This document shows, in pieces, positions 7,112 through 19,976 of a stretch of 64,000 nt of DNA. Numbering within the stretch: the first letter of the stretch is position 1; each line of letters begins with the position of its first letter. This DNA is from an uncultured Gammaproteobacteria bacterium (GTDB lineage: Bacteria; Patescibacteriota; Patescibacteriia; Magasanikbacterales; GWA2-37-8), in contig CAZHYJ010000002.1 of NCBI GenBank assembly GCA_964536725.1, positions 91,219 to 155,218 of the forward strand, given 5' to 3'. Position numbers and translations under genes: made by a program. Under the pieces are notes generated by a model. It was not told where the DNA came from, searched no databases, and saw nothing but the letters and a program-made list of their open reading frames with translations.

Positions 7112-7462
7112 ATGCGTCACCAATCGAATAAAGTCACATTGGATCGCAAGACCGCGCCTCGTCGCGCCCTTTTAGCTAACTTGGTAGAGAGTTTGGTTTT
7201 ATACGAAAAAATCACTACTACCTTAGCTAAAGCCAAGGCCTTACGTCCAAGAGTGGAAAAATTAATTACCATATCGAAAGTCAATACTTTGGCTTCTCGT
7301 CGTCAGCTCATGAAGGTTCTATATACCAAGAATGCTATCAAGAAATTGATGGAAGTATTGGGTCCACGTTATCTAGAACGCAAAGGTGGTTATACCCGCA
7401 TCATCAAGCTTGGTGTCCGTAAGGGCGATGGCGCTGAAAAGGCGGTTATTGAATTAGTATAA
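7112..7462 (+). CDS. rplQ: 50S ribosomal protein L17
   Basis: MRHQSNKVTLDRKTAPRRALLANLVESL.. is canonical L17. Follows rpoA directly. Confidence 0.9.
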   Translation: MRHQSNKVTLDRKTAPRRALLANLVESLVLYEKITTTLAKAKALRPRVEKLITISKVNTLASRRQLMKVLYTKNAIKKLMEVLGPRYLERKGGYTRIIKLGVRKGDGAEKAVIELV

Positions 7463-7466
7463 TCCT

Positions 7467-7817
7467 ATGTCAAGACAAAAAATTACTATCGATGCTACCG
7501 GTTTGGCACCAGGAAGATTGGCCACCAAAGTCGCAATGATTTTGATGGGCAAGAACAAGCCAACTTACGCCCCATATTTAGATGAAGGCGACAAGGTGGA
7601 AATTGAGAATGTTTCCTTGATGCGCTTTACTGGCAAGAAGATTGATCAAAAACTTTATCGACATCACTCCAACCACCCAGGTGGTTTGAAAGAAATCCCA
7701 GCCAAGCAGATGTTGAAAGAGAAGCCAGAAGATGTTTTGAATTTGGCCGTGATCAAAATGTTGCCTAAGAACAAATTGCGTAACTTACGCATGAAAAGAT
7801 TGACTTTTAAAAAGTAA
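7467..7817 (+). CDS. rplM: 50S ribosomal protein L13
   Basis: IDATGLAPGRLATKVAMILMGK and HHSNHPGG motifs. Sits beside rpsI. Confidence 0.9.
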   Translation: MSRQKITIDATGLAPGRLATKVAMILMGKNKPTYAPYLDEGDKVEIENVSLMRFTGKKIDQKLYRHHSNHPGGLKEIPAKQMLKEKPEDVLNLAVIKMLPKNKLRNLRMKRLTFKK

Positions 7818-7820
7818 CCT

Positions 7821-8231
7821 ATGACTAAAGTTGCGAAAAAAACTGATGATACCAGTCGCGCTGTCGGTCGTCGCAAACGCGCTTCCGCTCGGGTACGCAT
7901 TTCCAAAGGTACCGGCAAGATTGTTATCAACGGAATCGATTCTAAAGTATATTTCCCTCATTTTTCTCAGCAAGATGCCATCATGGCACCTTTAATCGCT
8001 TTGGCGAAAGAGAAAGATTTGGATATTTCAGTCAAAGTGGTAGGTGGTGGCAAGAAGGGTCAGTCCGTGGCAGTTGGCCATGGTATTGCTCGCGCTTTGG
8101 TGGCTTGGAACGCAGAGTTCAAGAAGTCCCTAAAGACCCTCGGCCTACTCACTCGCGATTCACGTATCAAGGAAAGAAAGAAATTCGGTTTGAAGAAAGC
8201 TAGACGTGCACCGCAGTGGTCAAAACGTTAA
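7821..8231 (+). CDS. rpsI: 30S ribosomal protein S9
   Basis: GGGKKGQSVAVGHGIARAL core with the C-terminal KKARRAPQWSKR. Confidence 0.9.
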   Translation: MTKVAKKTDDTSRAVGRRKRASARVRISKGTGKIVINGIDSKVYFPHFSQQDAIMAPLIALAKEKDLDISVKVVGGGKKGQSVAVGHGIARALVAWNAEFKKSLKTLGLLTRDSRIKERKKFGLKKARRAPQWSKR

Positions 8232-8240
8232 ACCAACAAA

Positions 8241-8267
8241 ATCCTCCAGGAATGGGGGATTTTTTTG
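8241..8267 (+). terminator. rho-independent terminator closing the ribosomal-protein operon
   Basis: AUCCUCC-AGGAAU-GGGGGAU forms a 7-bp stem with one U-G wobble. A UUUUUUUG run follows at 8261-8267. Confidence 0.6.
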
Positions 8268-8271
8268 TGGC

Positions 8272-8300
8272 TTGTCAATTATATTATAAAGGCGTAAAAT
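8272..8300 (+). promoter_or_regulatory. sigma70-type promoter TTGTCA-17-TAAAAT driving the mod-old-res operon
   Basis: TTGTCA at 8272-8277, a 17-nt spacer, TAAAAT at 8295-8300. It lies about 25 nt upstream of the mod ATG. Confidence 0.5.
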
Positions 8301-8325: not shown

Positions 8326-10155
8326 ATGGTTAATACAACTTTTGTTAGTGGTCAGTCGCTTGATATTCAAGCTGAAAAATTGGATGTTTTAAAAAATAAC
8401 TTTCCAGAAATATTTACGGAAGGTAAGATTGACTGTCTAAAATTGAAGCAAACACTTGGTGAGTCAGTTAGTACCGATAGTGAACGATATGGTTTGAGTT
8501 GGGCTGGTAAGAGCAACTGTTTTAATGACATTCAGACGCCTACTATGGCGACTTTGGTGCCAAACAGGGACGAATCAGTGGATTTTGATAAGACTAAGAA
8601 TTTGTTTATTGAGGGTGAAAATCTAGAGGTTCTGAAGGTGTTGCAAAAAAGTTATCACAGCAAAGTAAAAATGATATATATCGACCCTCCGTACAATACT
8701 GGCACTGATAGTTTTGTTTACCCAGATAACTTTAGTGAGTCAGAGCAAGAATATTTGAAAAAGGCGGGAGACGTGGCGGAGACAGGAGAGTTGCTTAGAG
8801 ATTTTCATAAGAATTCCAAAGATGGTGGTAGATATCATAGTAACTGGTTGAATATGATTTACCCGCGTTTATTTTTAGCGCGTAATTTACTGCGTGAGGA
8901 TGGAGTTATTTTTGTGTCTATTGACGATAATGAAGCGCATAATCTACGTATGGTGATGAACGAGGTCTTTGGCGAGGAAAATTTTATTGGATCAATGATT
9001 CGCAAATCCAAGATAGGCGGCGGTTCTGATAGCAAATTTATCGTTAAGGAGCATGAATATTTAATTGTTTTTGCAAAAGATGCTCAGGGTTTGCCAGAAA
9101 TGTTTACGCCACACAATATAGAATATTTAAAACGCTACAAAGAAGAAGACGAAAATGGAAAATATTTTTGGGATACGTTTTCGAGACCTGGTCTAAAAAA
9201 TCCAATAAATTATGATGTTAAATTGCCAGACGGAACATTTAAAAACGGTGATTGGATAAGGTCTAAAGATAGATTTGAAGATGATTTAGAAAACGAAGAA
9301 ATCAGGTTTGTAAAAAAAGAAGACGGGTCTTGGAGTGTGCAGTTTAAACAATATTTGAATGAAGATGGTAAAAAACCAAGGTCTTTTTCTTCTGACTTAG
9401 GTTCGACAATTGATGGGAAAAAAGACATAAAAAGAATATTTGAAAACTCTAAAATCTTTTCGTACCCAAAGCCGGTAAAATTAATTAAGTTTATCGTTGA
9501 TATAGTAACTGAACCCGGGGATATCGTCTTAGATTTTTTTGCTGGATCAGGGACAACAGCAGATGCGATAATGCAATTGAATTCAATGAATGATGGTGAT
9601 AGAAATTTTATTTTAGTACAGATACCAGAACAAACCGACATAAAGAGTGTGGCATATAAGGAGGGGTATAAGACGATATCTGCTATTTGTGTCGAAAGAA
9701 TATGTCGTGCAAGTAATAAGATTAAAAAAGATTTGGAAAGCAAGCATATCGCAGACGTCGGTTTTAAAGTTTTAAAGTTGGAACAGAGTAATTTTAAAAT
9801 TTGGCGCGCAAGTAGTAACGATAGTGCCACAACATTGCAAGCCAAACTCGAGGACGTGGTGGAGAATGTTAAGTCAAAAGCAAATAAGGAAAGTATTCTT
9901 TTGGAACTCTTGCTTAAGTCCGGTGTTGAGCCAACTGTTGAGGTGGAAGACAAGAAGGATTTTTATTTAGTCAAAGAACATCAACTAGCAATTTGCCTAG
10001 CTGATAAAATTACCGAAAAAATAGTAGCAGATATTGTTGCCGAAAAACCTAAAACTGTTTTGTGTTTGGATACTTCGTTTGTCGGCAACGACCAGTTAAA
10101 AACCAATATCGCGCTTCAGCTTAAAAGTGAGGGGGTTGAGTTTAAAGTGGTATGA
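8326..10155 (+). CDS. mod: Type III restriction-modification methyltransferase (Mod), beta-class N6-adenine/N4-cytosine MTase
   Basis: DPPYNTG (motif IV, about nt 8683) comes before FFAGSGTTADA (motif I, about nt 9535). That circular permutation is typical of Type III Mod. 609 aa. Its stop overlaps the next start as ATGA. Confidence 0.85.
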   Translation: MVNTTFVSGQSLDIQAEKLDVLKNNFPEIFTEGKIDCLKLKQTLGESVSTDSERYGLSWAGKSNCFNDIQTPTMATLVPNRDESVDFDKTKNLFIEGENLEVLKVLQKSYHSKVKMIYIDPPYNTGTDSFVYPDNFSESEQEYLKKAGDVAETGELLRDFHKNSKDGGRYHSNWLNMIYPRLFLARNLLREDGVIFVSIDDNEAHNLRMVMNEVFGEENFIGSMIRKSKIGGGSDSKFIVKEHEYLIVFAKDAQGLPEMFTPHNIEYLKRYKEEDENGKYFWDTFSRPGLKNPINYDVKLPDGTFKNGDWIRSKDRFEDDLENEEIRFVKKEDGSWSVQFKQYLNEDGKKPRSFSSDLGSTIDGKKDIKRIFENSKIFSYPKPVKLIKFIVDIVTEPGDIVLDFFAGSGTTADAIMQLNSMNDGDRNFILVQIPEQTDIKSVAYKEGYKTISAICVERICRASNKIKKDLESKHIADVGFKVLKLEQSNFKIWRASSNDSATTLQAKLEDVVENVKSKANKESILLELLLKSGVEPTVEVEDKKDFYLVKEHQLAICLADKITEKIVADIVAEKPKTVLCLDTSFVGNDQLKTNIALQLKSEGVEFKVV

Positions 10156-11915
10156 AGATAAAAAAAGTAATCCTAGAAAACTTTAGAGCATATAGAGAAA
10201 AAATTTGTATAGATTTTGACGACATGACAGTTTTGATTGGGCAGAATGATGTTGGCAAGTCATCTTGGCTGGAAGCTCTTGATATTTTTTTTGAGGCTGG
10301 TGTGGTTAAGGTAGAGCCAAAAGACAGTACCATTAAAGAGTCCGAAACATTTTTTGTAACAGTGGTTTTTGCCCCACCAGAAAAAATCGTTATTGATGCA
10401 CAAGCCACGACCGTGTTAAGTGATGAGTTTTTGCTTAATGCGGATGCGGATTTGGAAATAAAAAGATGTTTTAAAAATGGCAAGGCTGGGAAAACTTTCA
10501 TAGTTGCCAACCATCCAACAAACAAGGAGTTGAAGGGGTTAATATCCCAAAAAATAGACGAGCTGAAGGATCTTGCGAGTAAATTGGGTGTCAAAGATGA
10601 AGCTGTTGAAAATAAAACTAAATCAGCTTCTTGGCGCAAGGCGATTAGAGATGCTGTGGAATTAGAATTTGGTTACCAAGAGATCGATATCGAGGGGGCG
10701 AAGGATATTTGGGCGCAAATAGAAAAGCAATTTCCAGTGTATAGTTTGTTTCAGTCTGACAGAAAAAATATTGATACAGATAACGAAGTGCAGGATCCTT
10801 TAAAAGCGGCTACAAAAATAATTCTTGCCAGGGAAGAGATAAAAGCCCTGCTTGGAGATTTGGAGACAAAGGTCAAATTAGCAACTGAAGAAATATCTAA
10901 CAAGACATTGGAGAAATTAAACGAAATGAATCCTGAATTAGCAAAGCATTTGCATGCTGATTTTGACAAACCCAAGTGGGACTTAGTCTTTAAACCGTTT
11001 ATAGATACTGACGATGGTGTCCCTTTAAACAAAAGAGGTAGTGGTGTTCGAAGAATGATATTGTTAAATTTTCTTAGGGCTGAGGCAGAGCGCAAAGCAG
11101 AAGGTGAGAAAAAAGATTTAATCTATGCGATTGAGGAACCAGAAACTTCGCAGCATCCTTTCCACCAAAGAATGATGATTGAGGCTTTGTTAGAACTTTC
11201 AAAAAGACACAATATCCAAGTGATTATAACGACGCATAGTCCGCAACTTATTAAAGATGTTGGATACAAGAATATACGTTTTATAGCTAAAACCGAAGAT
11301 AAAGCTAGACAAATAATATCTGGTGAAAAAGCAATGCAAATGACAATTAATGAGTTGGGTGAGTTGCCAAGAATTGATGGGGGTTACCTGTTTTGTGTTG
11401 AAGGCCAAAATGATGTTTCGTTTTTTAGAAATGTAGCAGGGGTGGTTAACTTATTTGATCTTAACAACATTCCGATATTACCTTTAAATGGTGGTTTTAT
11501 TAAAAAGTGGGCTGAGGAACATTATTTGGAAAATACTGATGTAAAGGAGTTTCATCTTTATGATCGTGATAATAAGGACGAAAGATACAAAGCAACAGCC
11601 GAGAAAGTTAGTAGCTGGCCTAATGCGCAAGCTGTTATAACCAAGAAGAGGGAGATCGAAAATTATGTTCACCCCAGTTTGATTAATGATAAATTTGGTT
11701 TAGACTTGGTTTTTGACGGATCTTGGGACGACAAGAATATTCCCAAAATATGTGCAGATAGAACTGGGGAAAAGGAGGAAGTGATAAAAGAAATTATTTG
11801 CGGTGAGTTATCCGTTAAAATGACAAAAGATTTTTTTGAAGAAATAGAAGCGTGGGATGAGGTAAGGGGCTGGTTTGAGCAAATGAATAAATTAGCGTTA
11901 AGTGGTTCAAAATAA
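10152..11915 (+). CDS. OLD-family ABC ATPase + C-terminal TOPRIM nuclease (class-1 OLD-like, 587 aa)
   Basis: N-terminus has Walker A GQNDVGKSS, Walker B/D-loop DLIYAIEEPETSQHP and H-loop ITTHSPQLI. C-terminus has a Toprim glutamate (LFCVEGQNDVSFF) and a DxD motif (HLYDRDN). Length and architecture match P2 Old. Confidence 0.75.
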   Translation: MKIKKVILENFRAYREKICIDFDDMTVLIGQNDVGKSSWLEALDIFFEAGVVKVEPKDSTIKESETFFVTVVFAPPEKIVIDAQATTVLSDEFLLNADADLEIKRCFKNGKAGKTFIVANHPTNKELKGLISQKIDELKDLASKLGVKDEAVENKTKSASWRKAIRDAVELEFGYQEIDIEGAKDIWAQIEKQFPVYSLFQSDRKNIDTDNEVQDPLKAATKIILAREEIKALLGDLETKVKLATEEISNKTLEKLNEMNPELAKHLHADFDKPKWDLVFKPFIDTDDGVPLNKRGSGVRRMILLNFLRAEAERKAEGEKKDLIYAIEEPETSQHPFHQRMMIEALLELSKRHNIQVIITTHSPQLIKDVGYKNIRFIAKTEDKARQIISGEKAMQMTINELGELPRIDGGYLFCVEGQNDVSFFRNVAGVVNLFDLNNIPILPLNGGFIKKWAEEHYLENTDVKEFHLYDRDNKDERYKATAEKVSSWPNAQAVITKKREIENYVHPSLINDKFGLDLVFDGSWDDKNIPKICADRTGEKEEVIKEIICGELSVKMTKDFFEEIEAWDEVRGWFEQMNKLALSGSK

Positions 11916-11922
11916 ACTTATT

Positions 11923-14604
11923 ATGAAACTCCAATTCGACCCAAATCAACAGTATCAACTTGATGCCATCAAATCCACGGTGGACGTTTTTGAAGGTCAG
12001 CCATTATCTGGTGGCGATTTTGAATTTACGCTCCTTCACACACAAAGTGGTTTGCGGTTGCCTAGTACCGGAGTAGCCAATAATTTGTTAATTGATGCTC
12101 AGACGATGCTTAATAATGTTAATGTGGTTAAAGAGAGGAACGGAGTACCGCTAGAAAAGGATGGAACGTCATTGGGTGTAGTGGAAATTGGGGCTGGGGT
12201 CTTTCCCCAGTTTACAATCGAAATGGAAACTGCGACCGGTAAGACCTATGTCTACCTTCGTACCGTATATGAGTTAAACAAGCAGTATGGCTTTAAGAAG
12301 TTTATCATTGTGGTTCCGAGTATAGCTATCCGAGAAGGTGTACTAAAGAATTTGGAAATAACCAAAGACCATTTTGCCTCATTGTACAATAATGTTCCAG
12401 TGGATTATTTTGTCTATGACAGTCGGAAGCTTGGTAAACTTAGAGGCTTTGCCACTGGTAATACTTTACAAATAATGGTGATTAACATCGATGCCTTTAA
12501 CAAGGATATTAACATAATGCACCAAGATGTGGACCGGCTGCAAGGTAAGCCAATAGATTTTATACGACAAACTTCCCCGATAGTAGTGATGGACGAACCA
12601 CAAAACATGGAGTCGGACACAGCCAAAAAAGCCATTGCAAGTTTAAATCCTCTATGCACTTTTAGATACAGTGCTACTCACCGCAATTATTACAACTTGT
12701 TATACAAGTTAGATCCAGTGCAAGCATACGACCTTGGATTGGTAAAAAAAATAGAAGTAGATTCGGTGCTTTCTGACTCTGATGCAAACAACGCTTTTGT
12801 GCAGTTGGTTTCTATCGACAGCAAAAAGAAAGGTATAACCGCCAAAATCAAAATTCATGTAAATGAGAAAGACGGAGCATCTTCAAAGCAAGTAACAATA
12901 AAACCAGGGAGTGACTTGTTTGAGTTATCCAAGGAGCGGGAAGTTTATAAAAGTGGTTTTACCGTAGAAGGGATTGACGCAGAAAATGGCTATATCGAAT
13001 TTAGCAATGGTGTTGTCATTAAAAACGGTGAGACGCGTGGTGGTTTGTCCGATGAAATAATGAAGGAACAAATCCGTGAAACTATTCGCGAGCACTTTGA
13101 GAAAGAGTTGAAGTTGACTGCCAAGGGTATAAAAGTTTTGTCTTTGTTCTTTATAGACAGGGTGGCAAATTACCGCGCCTATAGTGGTAACGAACAACAG
13201 AAGGGTAAAATCGCCCAGTGGTTTGAAGAAATTTATAGTGAGATGGCGAAGTTGGAGAAGTACAAGGAGCTGAACTTGGCGGAGGCAGGATTGGTGCACA
13301 ATGGCTATTTTTCGATAGACAACAAAGGACATGTAAAAGACACTAATGGTCAGACACAGGCAGATGACGATACTTATGCTTTAATTATGAAGGACAAAGA
13401 GAGACTGCTGTCTTTTAGAGAACCGTTAAGATTTATTTTTTCTCACTCTGCCTTGCGTGAAGGTTGGGACAGTCCAAACGTTTTTCAAATTTGTACACTA
13501 AACGAAACGAAATCAGAATTAAAAAAACGACAAGAAATTGGTCGTGGTTTGAGATTGGCAGTCAACCAAGATGGCGAGCGTATTTTTGACACCACGATTA
13601 ATCGTTTGACTGTTATTGCTAATGAGAGTTATGAAGAGTTTGCTAATAAACTACAAACAGAGATACATGACGAGTGTGGGGTAGACTTTACTGGTAGAAT
13701 AAAAAATAAGAAAAAATCTAAAGTGGTGAAGGTGAAGAAAGGTTACCAGTTAGATGAAAACTTTAAAGCACTTTGGGATAAGATAAAGCAAAAGACCAAG
13801 TACCAGGTGGAATTTAAAACTGATGAATTGATTGCAAAATCTGCTAAGGCAGTAAAAGAAATGTCTCGAATAGAGTCAATTAAAATAAAAGTAAGCAAAG
13901 CCAGGATTGAAATGAAGCAGGAGGGAATTTTTGCTACTCCGCCATCGAGAGAGAAGGATATTGAGTTTGTAATTAACGACCTTTTTATTCCCGACGTTTT
14001 GCACTACATACAAACCAAAGTGGAGCTTACCAGAGATACTATCTACAAAATTATTTTGAAATCAGACAGGTTGGACGATATACTGGTTAACCCACAACAA
14101 TTTGTTGATCAAGTGTCAGAGATAATTAGATTTACCTTACAGCAGATGATGGTGGACGGAATTAAGTATGAGAAGATAGCTGGGCAGGAATATAAGATGA
14201 CATTGTTTGAGTCGGAGGAACTAATGGTATATTTGAGCGACAAAAATACTTACGAGGTCAAAGACAAAGCAAAGACTGTTTATGATTATTATGAACTAGA
14301 CTCAGAAGTTGAGTCAGATTTTATTAAAGCATTGGAAGAGCGTGAGGATATTTTGTTCTACGTTAAATTACCTCGGTGGTTTACCATTGGTACACCGATT
14401 GGTACATATAATCCAGATTGGGCGATTGTGTTTGAGGGTGATAAGAAGTTGTATTTTGTGGCTGAGACAAAGGGAACTAACAAGGTGGAACAATTGAAAT
14501 TGTCAGAGCAGTTAAAGATTAGGTGCGGTGAAAAACATTTTGCAGAATTTGAAGGTGTAGAATTTAAAGCGCCGGTGGTTGGATTGCAGGATGTGTTAAA
14601 ATAA
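11923..14604 (+). CDS. res: Type III restriction enzyme Res subunit (SF2 helicase + C-terminal PD-(D/E)XK endonuclease)
   Basis: MKLQFDPNQQYQLDAI start. Motif I METATGKTYVYL, motif II DEPQN, motif III SAT. C-terminal YNPDW..FEGD..FVAETKG nuclease motif. The ORF track starts at a GTG at 11902, but the ATG at 11923, 8 nt past the old stop, is preferred. Confidence 0.85.
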   Translation: MKLQFDPNQQYQLDAIKSTVDVFEGQPLSGGDFEFTLLHTQSGLRLPSTGVANNLLIDAQTMLNNVNVVKERNGVPLEKDGTSLGVVEIGAGVFPQFTIEMETATGKTYVYLRTVYELNKQYGFKKFIIVVPSIAIREGVLKNLEITKDHFASLYNNVPVDYFVYDSRKLGKLRGFATGNTLQIMVINIDAFNKDINIMHQDVDRLQGKPIDFIRQTSPIVVMDEPQNMESDTAKKAIASLNPLCTFRYSATHRNYYNLLYKLDPVQAYDLGLVKKIEVDSVLSDSDANNAFVQLVSIDSKKKGITAKIKIHVNEKDGASSKQVTIKPGSDLFELSKEREVYKSGFTVEGIDAENGYIEFSNGVVIKNGETRGGLSDEIMKEQIRETIREHFEKELKLTAKGIKVLSLFFIDRVANYRAYSGNEQQKGKIAQWFEEIYSEMAKLEKYKELNLAEAGLVHNGYFSIDNKGHVKDTNGQTQADDDTYALIMKDKERLLSFREPLRFIFSHSALREGWDSPNVFQICTLNETKSELKKRQEIGRGLRLAVNQDGERIFDTTINRLTVIANESYEEFANKLQTEIHDECGVDFTGRIKNKKKSKVVKVKKGYQLDENFKALWDKIKQKTKYQVEFKTDELIAKSAKAVKEMSRIESIKIKVSKARIEMKQEGIFATPPSREKDIEFVINDLFIPDVLHYIQTKVELTRDTIYKIILKSDRLDDILVNPQQFVDQVSEIIRFTLQQMMVDGIKYEKIAGQEYKMTLFESEELMVYLSDKNTYEVKDKAKTVYDYYELDSEVESDFIKALEEREDILFYVKLPRWFTIGTPIGTYNPDWAIVFEGDKKLYFVAETKGTNKVEQLKLSEQLKIRCGEKHFAEFEGVEFKAPVVGLQDVLK

Positions 14605-14609
14605 ATATT

Positions 14610-15053
14610 ATGACTGGAGTAAAAGTTGTCTCTGAAGAATTTGTGCAACGTACAATTATTTGTTGGTTATCAAGTCATGGTTGGGGAGCGAGTTTGCGGT
14701 TTGGCGCATTACATGATAAGGGTGTGGATATTAAAGTTAGACACAATAAATATTCTAGATATTTTTTGATTGAAACAAAAGGTGAGGGAAGTGCTACTTC
14801 TAAATCACGTAATTCCCAAAAAGAAACCCATTTTGTTTTTGGTTTAGGACAGATAGTGACGCGTATGAATTGTGGTGGTAGTACTAGAAATTATTATGGT
14901 TTAGGATTGCCTGAATCTAGTGCTAAAATTGCTCTGCGTCGTTTGCCTTGGCAGGTTGCTAAAAAATTATTACTGCATATATTTTCTGTTAACGGAAACG
15001 GCGAGGTAGTACAATTTAGTTGGAAGGAATTAAAAAAAATTCAAGAAAAATAG
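14610..15053 (+). CDS. small PD-(D/E)XK-fold protein (Hjc/Mrr-like), 147 aa, trailing the res gene
   Basis: Starts 5 nt after the res stop. GVDIKV...YFLIETKGEG fits a D..(D/E)xK nuclease core. Size and pattern resemble Hjc/Mrr-cat mini-nucleases. This is a motif-level call only. Confidence 0.35.
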   Translation: MTGVKVVSEEFVQRTIICWLSSHGWGASLRFGALHDKGVDIKVRHNKYSRYFLIETKGEGSATSKSRNSQKETHFVFGLGQIVTRMNCGGSTRNYYGLGLPESSAKIALRRLPWQVAKKLLLHIFSVNGNGEVVQFSWKELKKIQEK

Positions 15054-15078
15054 GTTAATTGTTATTAGTCAACTTCTT

Positions 15079-15834
15079 ATGTCCCAATACTACAACCCCC
15101 AACGCACCACCAAAATGTACACCGGCCTGTCTTCCGATAAACCGTTCGCATTGTCCCGTTCCAAAATTGACCTTTTCCTAGAGTGTCCGCGTTGTTTTTA
15201 TCTTGATCGCAAACTGGGTGTTGGACGCCCACCAGGATTTCCGTTTAATTTAAATACAGCGGTTGATCATCTTTTAAAATTAGAATTTGATATTCATCGG
15301 GTGAACGGGACCAAACATCCGTTGATTGAAAAATATGGCGTTGATGCTCAGCCGGTCGCGCATCGTGATTTGGATAAATGGCGTGCCAATTTTACCGGTG
15401 TGCGCTATTTGCATACTCCCACCAATTTGATGATCTTTGGCGCGATTGATGATCTGTGGATAAATTCTAAAGGTGAATATATTGTGGTGGATTACAAAGC
15501 CACATCAAAAGATGAGAAAATTACCAAATTAAACCAAGGTTGGCAGATTGGGTACAAACGACAGATGGAAGTATATCAGTGGCTTTTGCGTCAGAATGGT
15601 TTTAAGGTTTCTAATACTGGATATTTTGTCTATTGCAATGGTCAAAAAGATCGTAAAGCTTTTGATGGTAAATTGGAATTTGATGTGACTTTGATTGCGT
15701 ACAAGGGTGATGATTCGTGGGTGGAGAAAACTATTGTTAAAGCGCACAAGTGTTTGAACGGTGGTAAGATTCCGAAGGCGAGCGGGGAGTGTGATTATTG
15801 TAATTATATTAAGGCGGTGAATAGTAAATTATAA
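15079..15834 (+). CDS. Cas4/RecB-like PD-(D/E)XK nuclease-family protein with 4-Cys cluster
   Basis: N-terminal CPRC. GAIDDLW...IVVDYKATS gives the D..D-x-K nuclease motif. C-terminal C-x14-CDYC. About 250 aa, the usual size for standalone Cas4-like nucleases. Confidence 0.65.
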   Translation: MSQYYNPQRTTKMYTGLSSDKPFALSRSKIDLFLECPRCFYLDRKLGVGRPPGFPFNLNTAVDHLLKLEFDIHRVNGTKHPLIEKYGVDAQPVAHRDLDKWRANFTGVRYLHTPTNLMIFGAIDDLWINSKGEYIVVDYKATSKDEKITKLNQGWQIGYKRQMEVYQWLLRQNGFKVSNTGYFVYCNGQKDRKAFDGKLEFDVTLIAYKGDDSWVEKTIVKAHKCLNGGKIPKASGECDYCNYIKAVNSKL

Positions 15835-15840
15835 TATATT

Positions 15841-16122
15841 ATGTCTAAACGTAAATTTGAAATTATAATAGGTGTTGTTGGTTTATTAGTTGTGGTTGGT
15901 TGTTTTGCTGCGGCCGAACGGGGGACACATTATTTCAAAATACCAGTATTTAAAACACTATACGATATAGCCAAGGTCTCGGCTGTGGTATTTTATGGAA
16001 TTTGCAAATTGTTTATAGTCGGTATTTGGAATGCTGTAATGAGTAATTGGTTAACTGGATTGGTGTCATTTGGATTAGTCTTGTTGGTGGTGTTGTTATA
16101 CTACTACAGGAAAAATAATTAA
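15841..16122 (+). CDS. small membrane protein (2 TM), 93 aa
   Basis: Two hydrophobic helices. Starts 6 nt after the previous gene. Confidence 0.4.
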   Translation: MSKRKFEIIIGVVGLLVVVGCFAAAERGTHYFKIPVFKTLYDIAKVSAVVFYGICKLFIVGIWNAVMSNWLTGLVSFGLVLLVVLLYYYRKNN

Positions 16123-16205
16123 TAAATCTTCTTTAATATGGGGTCGTTTGAAATTAAGCTTGCGGCCAAAAAAGATCGTTGTAGTAACCCTGATAATTTT
16201 AAGAA

Positions 16206-17441
16206 ATGAACCAAGCTAAAGCTTTAAAAATCCTACAATCCGGGGAGAATGTTTTTTTGACTGGTTCTGCTGGTAGTGGAAAGACTTTTTTGTTAAACAA
16301 ATTTGTTGACTACTTAACATGTAAGAAGATAAAGGTGGGGATAACCGCTTCCACCGGTATTGCTGCGACCCATTTAAACGGACGGACTATTCACTCTTGG
16401 TGTGGAATGGGGATTGAAAAGAAGATGAGTGCTAAAAAAATTAAAAAGATGTTGAAGCGACCAGAGTTGTTTGAAAGGATTAAAACTGCTGCCGTTTTGA
16501 TTATCGATGAAATCTCCATGCTCGACGCCGATCGTTTGGATCTGGTTGATAAGATTTGCAAGGCGGTCAGAAATCCCTTTGCTCCGTTTGGTGGAATTCA
16601 AATTGTTTTGTGTGGCGATTTTTTCCAATTGCCCCCGGTCAACAAAGATTCAAAATTTGCTTTTCATTCTTTTGCATGGAAACATTCAAATATCAAAGTC
16701 TGTTATTTAGACGAACAATTTAGACAGGATGATAAGGAGTTTTTAAATGTTTTAAACAAAATACGCGCCAATGAAGTTGGGGAAAAAGAATTGGAGTTGT
16801 TAAAATCTAGATTGCACGAACCGGTTACGCACGCGCCCAAGTTGACCAAGCTCTATACCCACAACATCAATGTGGATGCGTATAATGATTTTGAATTGTC
16901 CAACATCCAAAAGGAAGAAAAAATATATCGTATAACTGAACACGGCCCCGAAGAGTTGGTGAATTTTTTGAAGAAAAGTTATCCTGCTGTGGAAGAATTA
17001 AAGTTGAAAGTTGGTGCGGTGGTGATGTTTATAAAAAACAATTTTGATAGTGGTTATGTCAATGGCACTTTGGGGGAGGTAGTTGATTTTGATGACGGCG
17101 GTTATCCGATTGTTAAAACTAGAAATAAAGAAAAAATTGTTGCTATGCCGTCTAGTTGGAATATTGAGGAAGACGAAGTGGTTTTGGCGAGTATTAGGCA
17201 GGTGCCATTGCGTTTGGCTTGGGCGATAACCGTACACAAAAGTCAGGGGATGAGTCTGGATGCAGCGGAGATAGACCTGTCCAAGTCATTTGAACGTGGT
17301 ATGGGCTATGTGGCTTTATCGCGTGTGCGATCTTTAAGTAGTATCCGTTTGATGGGGATAAATGAAATGGCTTTGCAGGTGAATGAACAGGTGGTTAAAA
17401 AGGATAAGGATTTTAAGGTTTTGTCGGAGCAGAATAAATAG
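16206..17441 (+). CDS. Pif1-family (RecD-like, SF1B) DNA helicase
   Basis: LTGSAGSGKTF (Walker A), TGIAATHLNGRTIHS, LIIDEISM (Walker B), CGDFFQLPPV and VHKSQGMSLD motifs. 411 aa. Confidence 0.8.
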   Translation: MNQAKALKILQSGENVFLTGSAGSGKTFLLNKFVDYLTCKKIKVGITASTGIAATHLNGRTIHSWCGMGIEKKMSAKKIKKMLKRPELFERIKTAAVLIIDEISMLDADRLDLVDKICKAVRNPFAPFGGIQIVLCGDFFQLPPVNKDSKFAFHSFAWKHSNIKVCYLDEQFRQDDKEFLNVLNKIRANEVGEKELELLKSRLHEPVTHAPKLTKLYTHNINVDAYNDFELSNIQKEEKIYRITEHGPEELVNFLKKSYPAVEELKLKVGAVVMFIKNNFDSGYVNGTLGEVVDFDDGGYPIVKTRNKEKIVAMPSSWNIEEDEVVLASIRQVPLRLAWAITVHKSQGMSLDAAEIDLSKSFERGMGYVALSRVRSLSSIRLMGINEMALQVNEQVVKKDKDFKVLSEQNK

Positions 17442-17575
17442 GGTAAAAAAATAACCCCGAAGGGCTATTTCCAACCATGTTTCCTACTGCTGGTTTCCCA
17501 GCCACGCCACCGTCCGGTGACAGTTCGGATAACAGGTTTTTGTAAAATTATTTTATCACAGTTATGATATTTTGC

Positions 17576-17630
17576 ATAGCGCCGACTTTTTGATTTTAGT
17601 TTTTTGTGATAAAATATACCAAAATTAATT
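17576..17630 (+). promoter_or_regulatory. conserved promoter cassette copy A (extended -10 TGaTAAAAT) upstream of the NYN gene
   Basis: ATAGCGCCGACTTTTTGATTTTAGTTTTTTGTGATAAAATATACC. About 85% identical to copy B at 19500-19558. TAAAAT at 17610-17615 is preceded by TGa. Confidence 0.4.
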
Positions 17631-17637
17631 ATTTTTT

Positions 17638-18390
17638 ATGTTCAAACCACAAACAACCAGGATAAATGAGGTAGCAAATAACTATCGTGTCAGAATTGCC
17701 GCTTTAGAGCAGTTGTTTTTTGGTACTGTGAATATTTACGTCGATTACGCCAATGTTAGACCGTGGGCAACTAAACTGGGTTGGAATATTGATCTAAGGA
17801 GGTTAAAACAGTTTTTGTATTCTTTCAATAATGTTGCGTCGGTAAAGTTTTATAGTGGACTACTGCTTGGGGATATTGATTCGGAAGATTTGGATGAAGA
17901 GTGTAAGAAGTTATTTAAAGATGATTATAAAACTAAGTCGGTAAAAATTTTAAAGAAGTCTATAGATTACAGCAGTATAAAATCAAATTCTTCAGACTTG
18001 CTGGAGCAGTTTGTACGCAAGTGTCTGCTTCGAGAATATACACTGGACACAATTGAATATTTGAACGAACGGTTTAGAGATTTAAATCAAATTGGTAAAT
18101 TATTCATAGAAGATAGAAAATGTAATTTTGATGTGGAAATTGGGACTGATATGGCTCTGGATTTAGAAAGAAAAGGTGTGGACACTTTTGTTTTATGGAG
18201 TGGCGACAGTGATTTTTATGATCCAGTATTAAAACTTCTAGAAAAAGGAAAAAGAGTAATATTGTTTGCGACGGCCAGAAAAGTATCGTCGGAGTTAAAT
18301 GATCTCGGCCAAAAAGGTTTGTGTATTTATGATATTCAAAAAATCAGGAATTTTATATGCTACAAGCGGCAGATTGATTTGAGTCTGTAA
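17638..18390 (+). CDS. NYN-domain (LabA-like, PIN-like) predicted RNase
   Basis: VNIYVDYANV at the N-terminus. DVEIGTDMALD...FVLWSGDSDFYDPV..GKRVILF are the characteristic NYN acidic motifs. Confidence 0.7.
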   Translation: MFKPQTTRINEVANNYRVRIAALEQLFFGTVNIYVDYANVRPWATKLGWNIDLRRLKQFLYSFNNVASVKFYSGLLLGDIDSEDLDEECKKLFKDDYKTKSVKILKKSIDYSSIKSNSSDLLEQFVRKCLLREYTLDTIEYLNERFRDLNQIGKLFIEDRKCNFDVEIGTDMALDLERKGVDTFVLWSGDSDFYDPVLKLLEKGKRVILFATARKVSSELNDLGQKGLCIYDIQKIRNFICYKRQIDLSL

Positions 18391-18990: not shown

Positions 18991-19077
18991 TTATTTTTTG
19001 TTGCAAAGGAAAGCGGTTAGGCTGTCTTTTTTAGGTAATTTAACCGGTTTCCTTGGGTAGTAAAGGAGGACGGGATT

Positions 19078-19338
19078 ATGAAGAAGTGCAACAGGGAACA
19101 CGTGGTCATTCTGGGGACGAATCCTGATGGCACCGTGGACATGATGTGCGACGATGGGTCGGTGGGCCAGGCCGTCCCGCGCAAAGGAGGCGAGTTCAGA
19201 CTCGAGCCCACGGAGGTCGACGGCCTCTACCACCGAGTCTCCACCCGTGGCAACAAGTCCAGGGTCGGCTACTCGAAGGCCTTCGCCGACAACTGGGATG
19301 GCATTTTCGGCGCCAAGCTGGATACCACCGTGAACTAA
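19078..19338 (+). CDS. hypothetical protein (86 aa) encoded on a ~60%-GC foreign islet, preceded by a strong AAAGGAGG SD
   Basis: GC content jumps from about 38% to about 60% between roughly 19040 and 19420. Perfect SD 8 nt before the ATG. High-GC codon usage. No similarity I can name. Confidence 0.45.
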   Translation: MKKCNREHVVILGTNPDGTVDMMCDDGSVGQAVPRKGGEFRLEPTEVDGLYHRVSTRGNKSRVGYSKAFADNWDGIFGAKLDTTVN

Positions 19339-19456
19339 GGAGGTCGTCATGAACCGTCCAACCGGACCGCCGCAAGGCAGGTGGTCCAAGCGGAACAAAA
19401 ATCCGCTCGCACCACCATGTATATTTCTAAATATTTGGGAATACACATGGAGGGTT

Positions 19457-19478
19457 ACCGCGAGCGGTTTTTTTGTTG
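19457..19478 (+). terminator. weak rho-independent terminator (ACCG-CGAG-CGGU + U7)
   Basis: Short 4-5-bp GC stem followed by TTTTTTTGTTGT. Lies at the 3' edge of the high-GC islet. Confidence 0.35.
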
Positions 19479-19499: not shown

Positions 19500-19558
19500 A
19501 TAGCGTCAGTTTTTTGATTTCAGATTTTTATGATAAAATATACAGTATAATTAATTTA
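19500..19558 (+). promoter_or_regulatory. conserved promoter cassette copy B upstream of the MazF/PemK-like gene
   Basis: ATAGCGTCAGTTTTTTGATTTCAGATTTTTATGATAAAATATACAG. TGaTAAAAT extended -10 at 19531-19539. Paralogous to copy A. Confidence 0.4.
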
Positions 19559-19574
19559 TAAATTATATTTAGTT

Positions 19575-19976
19575 ATGAATAATAAGGAGGGGGTTGAGAA
19601 GTTCATTGAGTGGACAAAATTAAAAATACGACTACACATTTCTTTACACGAAATCTATTTTCGAGAAGGGGAAATTTGGTGGGCGAGCTTGGGTGTAAAT
19701 GTTGGCCACGAACAAGATGGGAAAAATGAAAATTTCGAGAGACCGATCTTAATATTAAAAAAATTTAATCAGCATGTTCTTTGGGCGGTGCCACTCACTA
19801 GTCAGGTCAAAGAAGATAATCCGTATTATATAAAATATAAATTAGGTGATAATGTTTATGCTGCGGTTATTTCCCAGCTTAGGTTGGTAAGTTCAAAGAG
19901 GTTGCGTAGAAAGATTGGTATGTTTTTAGCAGAAGACTTCGAAAGGGTTAGACAAGAAATTAAAAAACTTATATAA
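19575..19976 (+). CDS. MazF/PemK/Kid-family endoribonuclease toxin-like protein (with ~30-aa N-terminal extension)
   Basis: REGEIWWASLGVNVGHEQDGKN..RPILIL...AVPLTSQ. This matches the G-D/E-I-W-W-x-x-L and E-Q-x-G-x-RP-x-L-I-L and P-L-T-S-Q signature blocks of PemK/MazF. Confidence 0.7.
   Translation: MNNKEGVEKFIEWTKLKIRLHISLHEIYFREGEIWWASLGVNVGHEQDGKNENFERPILILKKFNQHVLWAVPLTSQVKEDNPYYIKYKLGDNVYAAVISQLRLVSSKRLRRKIGMFLAEDFERVRQEIKKLI

Follow-up and report, generated by a model that had tools for sequence, protein, structure and literature searches.

Do four closely packed genes that follow a type III restriction-modification (R-M) operon form one nuclease-helicase system, or do they merely share a location? 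The genes in question lie at positions 14610-17441 of a 64,000-nucleotide (nt) stretch of DNA, hereafter the window (contig CAZHYJ010000002.1, positions 91,219 to 155,218, assembly GCA_964536725.1), which was deposited as an uncultured Gammaproteobacteria bacterium and is assigned by GTDB to the Patescibacteriota (Magasanikbacterales). They comprise open reading frames (ORFs) for a PD-(D/E)XK nuclease of 147 residues (ORF147, 14610-15053), a Cas4/EXO5/AddB-like PD-(D/E)XK nuclease of 251 residues (ORF251, 15079-15834), a small membrane protein of 93 residues (ORF93, 15841-16122), and a Pif1-family superfamily 1B (SF1B) helicase of 411 residues (Pif1, 16206-17441). All four are on the + strand, and exactly 5, 25, 6, and 83 nt separate, in turn, the upstream restriction gene res from ORF147, ORF147 from ORF251, ORF251 from ORF93, and ORF93 from Pif1, in agreement with an earlier note on this DNA. 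That note had proposed that the genes are either accessory components of the same defense system as the R-M operon or an independent Cas4-like/Pif1 helicase-nuclease defense module.

Each of the four genes has an evolutionary distribution of its own, which argues that the row is a mosaic and not a unit. Our analysis moderately favors the interpretation that these are independently inherited genes in a variable defense island rather than one nuclease-helicase machine. The genes do not co-occur across genomes in the manner of a conserved module, and no system model in PADLOC-DB 2.0 covers the four as a set. Under this interpretation, a variable island comprising the type III methyltransferase gene mod, an inserted OLD-family ATPase gene, res, ORF147, ORF251, and ORF93 would sit upstream of a resident Pif1, and the DUF3800-IX RNA, NYN, MazG, and PemK elements that follow Pif1 would be further island-type genes.

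Independent assortment of the four genes

The neighborhood of ORF251 was sampled at 87 loci that encode relatives at 62-84% identity. Most of these loci come from Patescibacteria; Scalindua, Nitrospirota, and Elusimicrobiota contribute others, and three are IMG/VR contigs. Searches of these 87 loci with the window proteins (tblastn) recovered no homolog of ORF147 or ORF93. Pif1 was recovered within 10 kb of ORF251 at nine loci, mod at seven, and res at two, and Pif1 was nearly adjacent to ORF251 at only one. Clustering of all ORFs around ORF251 revealed hypervariable surroundings and no recurrent partner. The co-occurrence analysis of Cas4-like and Pif1 pairs for which the earlier note had called thus did not reveal a conserved pairing. 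Collectively, the scarcity of Pif1 near ORF251, the lack of a corresponding PADLOC system model, and the housekeeping contexts of Pif1 described below argue against an independent helicase-nuclease defense module.

Among the four genes, ORF147 alone is genuinely and repeatedly linked to R-M systems. At 88 sampled loci, DNA methyltransferases predominated at the two positions upstream of ORF147 homologs, where members of the N6_N4 methylase (12 cases), D12-class (11), HsdS (5), and HsdM (3) families were found, along with EcoRI-, Eco57I-, TaqI-, and AlwI-type genes. Downstream, ResIII was the commonest family (5), followed by GmrSD (2), DUF3800 (2), and HNH. Type III mod and res flank ORF147 on either side at L091, L106, L116, L150, and L140, in several independent cases alongside other defense genes; at L091, for example, the order is mod, Shedu, ORF147, DUF3800, res. 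ORF251 was present at only three of the 88 loci. The GC content at third codon positions of ORF147 (0.218) is the lowest among genes called in the window, compared with 0.41 for ORF251 and 0.42 for Pif1. The proposal that the genes are accessory components of one defense system is thus supported only insofar as ORF147 travels with R-M; a common accessory set of all four genes is not supported. Relatives (25-30% identity) of the NYN-domain gene found downstream of Pif1 also lie beside ORF147 homologs (L106, 184-876; L113, 4400-5113 and 6943-7617; L114, 5851-6528).

ORF93 is a rare small membrane protein without a demonstrated link to the other three genes. Its hydropathy profile has three hydrophobic peaks (residues about 8-24, 46-64, and 70-88), rather than the two transmembrane segments described previously. 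Searches of Pfam, PADLOC, NCBIfam, and PHROGs returned no match, and only 11 homologs, at 27-44% identity, were identified among 1.84 billion representative proteins. A hidden Markov model of the family detected no member in 98 loci. Genomic contexts were retrieved for three of the homologs, and a PDDEXK_1 gene lies upstream in only one of them.

Pif1 is a vertically inherited, resident backbone gene. Its assignment to the Pif1 family was upheld by matches above the cut-offs to PF05970 (E = 5.7e-40; score 137.7 vs. 25.9) and to the Pif1 2B domain PF21530 (36.9 vs. 23.9), by full-length matches to solved PIF1 chains (2e-75 to 3e-52), and by its Walker A motif (GSAGSGKT), IIDEISM motif, and signature-like stretch DKICKAVRNPFAPFGGIQ. 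When compared to SF1B helicases of known structure (Bacteroides 5fhd and 5ftb; yeast and human 5o6b and 6hph), it matches over its full length and is of an ordinary compact bacterial type. Matches to PADLOC models are confined to generic helicase cores (RecD-like, PDC-S68, and PDC-M16A). Among the best 120 homologs listed, identity declines smoothly from 81% in Magasanikbacteria to 62%.

The contexts of the closest Pif1 orthologs reveal how the island relates to this gene. At L097 (77% Pif1 identity), the order is DUF1189, tRNA-Trp, Pif1, and a gene with an RF-1 domain, and no island is present. At L096 (81%), the same DUF1189 and tRNA-Trp genes are followed by a 9.5-kb island and then by Pif1, the RF-1-domain gene, and SecA. 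That island comprises MazG-like, RadC, protease, and unknown genes, a different type III mod/res pair (mod 32% identical), and two small genes, and it lacks ORF251. The context at L098 (70%) is likewise of a housekeeping type. The presence of the island at L096 and its absence at L097 indicate that, in this lineage, islands insert on the upstream side of Pif1 and that Pif1 is the conserved flank of the insertion site. When the region upstream of Pif1 was aligned to those of relatives, weak similarity was detected to L097 only. The earlier note had held that conservation of a Pif1/Cas4-like pair beside housekeeping loci in relatives would argue for a housekeeping role, and this is largely what we observe for Pif1 itself (tRNA-Trp, Pif1, RF-1, SecA). 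The encoded protein would be a housekeeping DNA helicase of the host, with a predicted 5'-3' polarity.

Defense genes embedded in R-M operons, such as PrrC within type Ic hsd loci, and island hotspots beside tRNA or core genes are familiar features of bacterial genomes. The insertion of OLD between mod and res in the window and of Shedu, ORF147, and DUF3800 between mod and res at L091 resembles the former, and the island between tRNA-Trp and Pif1 resembles the latter. Loci L096 and L097, where the tRNA-Trp gene directly upstream of the Pif1 position occupies 335-408 and 9842-9913, respectively, are a clean example of a tRNA-adjacent hotspot with the island present or absent. Unlike in known hotspots, the recurring end gene, ORF251, is a nuclease under strong constraint and not a typical core flank.

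Predicted folds and conservation of the two nucleases

ORF147 had been described as Hjc/Mrr-like. This description is supported at the level of the superfamily but not of the family. Residues E9, D40, and E55-x-K57 are invariant in 41 sequences and form a classical PD-(D/E)XK constellation, and an AlphaFold2 model (predicted local distance difference test score of 82) displays the core order alpha-beta-beta-beta-alpha-beta. The closest fold is that of XisH (2inb; E = 3.6e-3, probability 0.99), followed by PaqCI, tRNA-splicing endonucleases, the nuclease domains of DdmD and Shedu, phage MmcB-like proteins, and VRR-NUC. With its core fold, its catalytic D...(D/E)XK residues, and matches that are themselves PD-(D/E)XK proteins, ORF147 falls within this superfamily. 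Neither Hjc nor Mrr was among the 50 best fold matches, and profile searches of Pfam (E up to 0.1), NCBIfam, PADLOC, and PHROG returned no match. A profile search against PDB sequences (hits up to E of 1) returned only noise, namely two galectin chains at E of ~0.1. ORF147 shares the core topology and the D...E-x-K residues with the XisH, VRR-NUC, MmcB-like, and tRNA-splicing endonuclease folds. However, its template modeling scores (TM-scores) to these are about 0.48 at 12-14% identity, it matches no Pfam, NCBIfam, or PADLOC model, and its linkage to R-M and methyltransferase genes differs from the context of XisH. We identified 457 homologs at 60-78% identity, some of which are fused to an N-terminal HARE-HTH domain, which is a DNA reader. 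These observations suggest that ORF147 is probably a small, active PD-(D/E)XK endonuclease. It travels with DNA methyltransferases and with R-M systems of several types, where it may act as an auxiliary nuclease or one that senses modification.

ORF251 had been termed a Cas4-like nuclease with four cysteines. The nuclease type was confirmed by a match to PDDEXK_1 (PF12705; E = 5.5e-15, score 56.4 vs. a cut-off of 22) and by fold matches to human EXO5 (7lwa), Cas4 SSO0001 (4ic1), the AdnAB/AddB nuclease domains, RecE, and MGME1; those to EXO5, Cas4, and AdnAB have E of about 1e-6 and a probability of 1.0 and place the protein in the PD-(D/E)XK superfamily. RecB-type motifs (D124/D125, D138-Y139-K140, and Q162...Y166) are invariant in 30 homologs. 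The relationship to Cas4 proper is looser. Scores fall below the cut-offs for both PF01930 (20.1 vs. 22.7) and TIGR00372 (36.8 vs. 65), and PADLOC matches are restricted to weak hits to Cas4 models. Instead of four, six cysteines are invariant (C36, C39, C186, C225, C238, and C241), with one C-X2-C pair toward each end of the protein (N-terminal C36-X2-C39 and C-terminal C238-X2-C241) and no cysteine five residues after C241. This differs from the canonical 1+3 Cas4 cluster, C...C-X2-C-X5-C. A profile search of the sequences of solved structures in PDB returned nothing.

These features permit comparison with several known groups. ORF251 resembles CRISPR-associated Cas4 (4ic1 and 8d3l) in fold (Foldseek E of 3e-6 to 2e-5, probability 1.0), in its catalytic motifs, and in cysteines that bridge the N- and C-terminal helices. 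However, in addition to its scores and cysteine pattern, it differs from Cas4 in being ~50 residues longer. No cas1, cas2, CRISPR array, or tandem repeats were identified in the window, and no Cas families were among the commonest neighbor families listed for ORF251. At or near the top of the fold matches stand EXO5 and the AddB/AdnAB nuclease domains (7lwa, 2.3e-6; 9np6, 8e-6), Fe-S-cluster nucleases that act 5'-3' on DNA ends in concert with helicases. However, ORF251 has no detectable sequence similarity to any solved chain, is not fused to a helicase, and yields TM-scores of about 0.4-0.45. Further counterparts are solo Cas4-like proteins of the pfam12705 (PDDEXK_1) type, which are over-represented in the candidate phyla radiation (CPR) (Hudaiberdiev et al., 2017; PMC5704561). 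These share the RecB-type core, a predicted cysteine-rich metal site, a stand-alone position outside CRISPR loci, and occurrence in a CPR genome. In that survey, Cas4-like domains recur near type III R-M genes, as ORF251 does here, and type III mod/res is the commonest neighborhood of UvrD-fused Cas4-like domains of unknown function (PMC5704561). In contrast to the domains in the survey, ORF251 is not fused to UvrD, its neighbors are hypervariable, and conservation within its family greatly exceeds the genomic median reported for solo cas4 (PMC5704561). Based on these comparisons, ORF251 would belong to the Cas4/EXO5/AddB clade, as a metal-cluster nuclease that stands alone and may process DNA ends with 5'-3' exonuclease-type chemistry.

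The ORF251 family is very large, highly conserved, and patchily distributed. It comprises at least 8000 clusters, and the best 120 matches listed are 75-84% identical to ORF251. Synonymous sites are saturated (synonymous divergence, pS, of 0.74-0.91) and nonsynonymous divergence (dN) is 0.12-0.31, with values of 0.12-0.15 for the closest homologs. Recent horizontal transfer was therefore rejected as the cause of the high identity. The substitution pattern indicates that ORF251 is under strong purifying selection, possibly in combination with old horizontal spread. A phage or plasmid origin was also rejected: 50,697 phage records yielded no match, and 72,556 plasmid records yielded a single one (48.7% identity), which lay in an uninformative context. 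Three IMG/VR contigs carry ORF251, but their flanks are host-like and common to genome contigs.

Placement of ORF251 and alternative explanations

The genes upstream and downstream of ORF251 differ markedly. At the -1 position, 79 genes span 87 Pfam families, the commonest of which is reverse transcriptase (RT, five times), and 71 of the 79 are co-directional with ORF251, many with gaps of ≤15 nt. At -2 and -3, R-M families are prominent: ResIII (13), SWI2_SNF2 (7), HsdR (5), HsdM (5), HsdS (5), Eco57I (5), MmeI (3), DpnI (3), N6_N4 (3), and C5 methylase (2). At +1 and +2, HTH_36, TPR, and TIR are found, with no R-M family among the 25 families listed. Matches to PADLOC models numbered 585 for genes at -2/-3 versus 91 for those at +1/+2. 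The restriction of both co-direction and R-M richness to the upstream side suggests that ORF251 tends to end changing arrays of R-M and defense genes.

Several arrangements recur around this gene. A block consisting of type III mod, res, RT, an ORF251 homolog (at about 8001-8750 in L001), and TIR was identified at L001, L002, L006, L007, and L008, with RT ~97% identical. These loci are labeled as different candidate phyla, and the block is either one shared element or a sign of inconsistent labels of metagenome-assembled genomes; given that L023 shares synteny with a Magasanikbacteria contig, several labels of "uncultured Gammaproteobacteria" are evidently mistaken. At eight loci (L012, L015, L016, L022, L024, L025, L027, and L041), a conserved set of genes lies downstream of ORF251 on the opposite strand and encodes a 96-aa protein, an HTH_36/DnaD-like protein, a 92-aa protein, and, where the sequence extends far enough, a CI/LexA-like repressor (HTH and peptidase S24). 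This set is reminiscent of the regulatory region at one end of a mobile element. A -10 box belonging to ORF251 itself, 3-12 nt before its ATG, was considered and rejected as a general feature: such a box was found at 19 of 76 loci versus 19% of control genes (p = 0.12), and the window lacks one. A perfect TATAAT at a distance of 5-6 nt is present at L045, L046, L049, L052, L063, and L067, most of which are labeled Nitrospirota.

A number of observations weigh against interpreting the four genes as a mosaic. The tight same-strand packing (5, 25, and 6 nt) looks operon-like, with no convincing terminator between the genes. As the earlier note had observed, no intergenic promoter or terminator was found at 14.6-17.4 kb by a consensus scan, but the scan as a whole performed at chance level (36 promoter-like sites vs. 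34.7 expected and 10 terminator-like sites vs. 8.2 expected from shuffled sequence), such that the absence of sites is weak evidence. The spacing is compatible with a single mRNA that the four genes may share with mod, OLD, and res. ORF251 also lies downstream of R-M genes far above chance, possibly reflecting function rather than insertion bias. It is 78-79% identical to its homologs at L021 and L023, where several further genes syntenic with the window, including core genes, are only 41-61% identical. ORF251 is therefore unlike both fast-evolving defense cargo and an ordinary core gene. Its nine of 87 co-occurrences with Pif1 within 10 kb exceed the ~2% that random placement in a ~1-Mb genome would give, with the qualification that the loci are phylogenetically non-independent. 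In six of seven loci with a Pif1 ortholog at ≥46% identity (L011, L017, L018, L021, L023, and L051), Pif1 follows ORF251 in the same direction, the two being separated by 0.3-5.5 kb of other genes, and the order ORF251, small gene, Pif1, NYN is found again at L011. Lastly, one of the ORF93 homologs directly follows a 242-aa PDDEXK_1 gene. The residual linkage of ORF251 to Pif1, its conservation, and the context of its Scalindua homologs keep two alternatives alive, in which ORF251 either processes DNA ends after restriction or belongs to a housekeeping resection pair.

In the first of these, ORF251, possibly together with ORF147, would be a shared restriction accessory, co-transcribed at the 3' end of the upstream R-M operon, that carries out RecBCD-like clean-up of restricted ends, maybe with nucleotide salvage in CPR bacteria and maybe with Pif1 as its motor. 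We regard this as unlikely, although it stands foremost among the alternatives. It accounts for the strong enrichment of type I, IIG, IIM, and III R-M genes on the upstream side alone, the co-direction and close spacing of upstream genes, the R-M linkage of ORF147, and the repeated occurrence of ORF251 after type III mod and res in R-M sets that are unrelated to one another (L001-type, L016/L025-type, and that of the window); the association of UvrD-Cas4-like fusions with type III mod/res (PMC5704561) points the same way. However, ORF251 has no fixed partner, and HerA, DUF3800, Bro-N, and dehydrogenase genes occupy the -1 position in addition to RT. Furthermore, Scalindua homologs follow a spore-photoproduct-lyase (SPL)-like radical SAM gene and DUF3109, a repair-type context and not an R-M one, res already carries a C-terminal endonuclease domain of its own (PF19778), and the type III island of the closest relative (L096) lacks ORF251. 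A broader formulation, ranking next and likewise doubtful, is that the family is a generic, terminal, and highly constrained end-processing companion of restriction and defense arrays in Patescibacteria, used in cis by many unrelated R-M systems of types I, IIG, IIM, and III, possibly as a RecBCD substitute that destroys restricted DNA and possibly with the resident Pif1, or else that it marks a capture site for defense cassettes.

The second alternative, which we consider more doubtful still, is that ORF251 and Pif1 are a split housekeeping helicase-nuclease pair that would perform AddAB- or RecB-like resection in a repair-reduced lineage, with the R-M island merely inserted beside it. The six loci at which Pif1 follows ORF251 in the same direction lend it weight, as do the syntenic blocks shared with the window and the non-defense-type genes that lie between the two at L017, L018, L021, and L023 (an unannotated conserved gene and, at L021 and L023, rhodanese-like, membrane-protein, and RF-1-domain genes annotated by reading translations). 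The strong purifying selection on ORF251, its EXO5-, AdnAB-, and AddB-like fold, and the SPL-like, DNA-repair-type context in Scalindua are also consistent with such a role. Against this, 78 of 87 ORF251 loci lack Pif1 within 10 kb, the three closest Pif1 orthologs (70-81% identity) have no ORF251 nearby, and the distance and the intervening genes vary. It is highly improbable that ORF251, ORF93, and Pif1 constitute a new self-contained helicase-nuclease anti-phage system. Nuclease and helicase pairs are a common theme in defense, the locus is in a defense-rich region, an ORF93 homolog does follow a PDDEXK_1 gene, and Pif1 partially matches the helicase parts of the PADLOC candidates PDC-S68 and PDC-M16A (E of about 1e-16 to 1e-20). 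However, those matches cover generic SF1 helicase cores only, Pif1 is vertically inherited in housekeeping contexts, and the ORF93 family has just 11 distant members, none at the 98 loci screened with its profile. The three genes were never found together at the 87 ORF251 loci, and this lack of co-occurrence brings the proposal close to refutation.

Surroundings of the four genes and significance of the locus

Upstream of the locus lies a ribosomal-protein operon (S13, S11, S4, RpoA, L17, L13, and S9) that ends at 8231. From 8326 to 17441, the genes form an unbroken run on the + strand: mod, OLD, res, ORF147, ORF251, ORF93, and Pif1. Between rpsI and mod, a terminator-like hairpin (8242-8258, + strand) and a promoter-like site (TTGTCA-17-TAAAAT, 8272-8300, + strand) were identified as consensus matches in the scan whose totals are at chance level, and the R-M transcription unit probably starts in this region (8242-8300). 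The methyltransferase gene mod (8326-10155, + strand) was identified by PF01555 (7e-39) and PADLOC MTase_III (9e-188), and res (11902-14604, + strand) by PADLOC REase_III (3e-298) and the ResIII and RE_endonuc domains. The OLD/AAA_15-family ATPase between them (10152-11915, + strand) matches AAA_15 (1e-73) and the PADLOC AriA, Old, and GajA models, with its N-terminal 367 residues matching AriA at 4e-64. It overlaps mod by 4 nt and res by 14 nt, and these start/stop overlaps suggest translational coupling of OLD within the R-M operon. No tRNA gene was identified in the 64 kb of the window, and no direct or inverted repeats bound the island. Integron-like cassette capture was rejected because gaps of 5-25 nt leave no space for recombination sites, in addition to the lack of bounding repeats.

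Beyond the Pif1 stop codon, at a distance of 28 nt, the co-directional string of genes gives way to a DUF3800-IX RNA motif encoded on the other strand (17469-17538; Rfam RF02968, 43.2 bits vs. a gathering score of 36.8). The function of DUF3800 RNA motifs is unknown (PMC5737381). The neighbor of the motif in the window is an NYN-domain gene (17638-18390) with matches to PADLOC NYN and HEC-09 that appears to be another recurrent island gene. It was considered as a disguised DUF3800 gene, which was rejected for lack of similarity to the DUF3800 protein of L011; this protein, the one tested, had no match anywhere in the window. At L011, a DUF3800-IX RNA and a DUF3800-V RNA (7309-7406 and 7553-7620, - strand) lie between the DUF3800 gene and the ORF251 homolog, which is followed by GIY-YIG, Pif1, and NYN genes.

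The sole notable repeat in the window is a 44-nt direct repeat, 84% identical between copies, located before NYN (17576-17619; gene start at 17638) and before a PemK-like toxin gene (19500-19543; gene start at 19575). Its sequence (TTGATTT...TGATAAAATATAC) is promoter-like and resembles a shared promoter or cassette-leader element. Between the MazG-like and PemK genes, a GC-rich patch (about 19020-19470; GC of 0.55 vs. 0.32-0.47 for other genes called in the window) carries two small ORFs preceded by strong GGAGG Shine-Dalgarno sequences, an 86-aa ORF at 19078-19338 and another that begins at 19350. This patch looks like a recently acquired foreign fragment.

Collectively, our findings suggest that the locus is a typical mosaic defense island in which the proposed nuclease-helicase system is not a unit. 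Two leads emerge from it: the unmodeled family of ORF147, and the ORF251 family, whose placement and conservation are unusual. ORF147 defines a family of small PD-(D/E)XK nucleases (457 homologs) that is tightly associated with methyltransferases, often inside type III R-M operons, and it is a candidate for an R-M auxiliary or a type IV-like nuclease, one that current defense finders miss. The ORF251 family is among the most conserved proteins of these genomes, yet it occupies the downstream end of R-M arrays whose content keeps changing. Should this placement have a function, it would suggest that CPR bacteria share a DNA-processing step that follows restriction.

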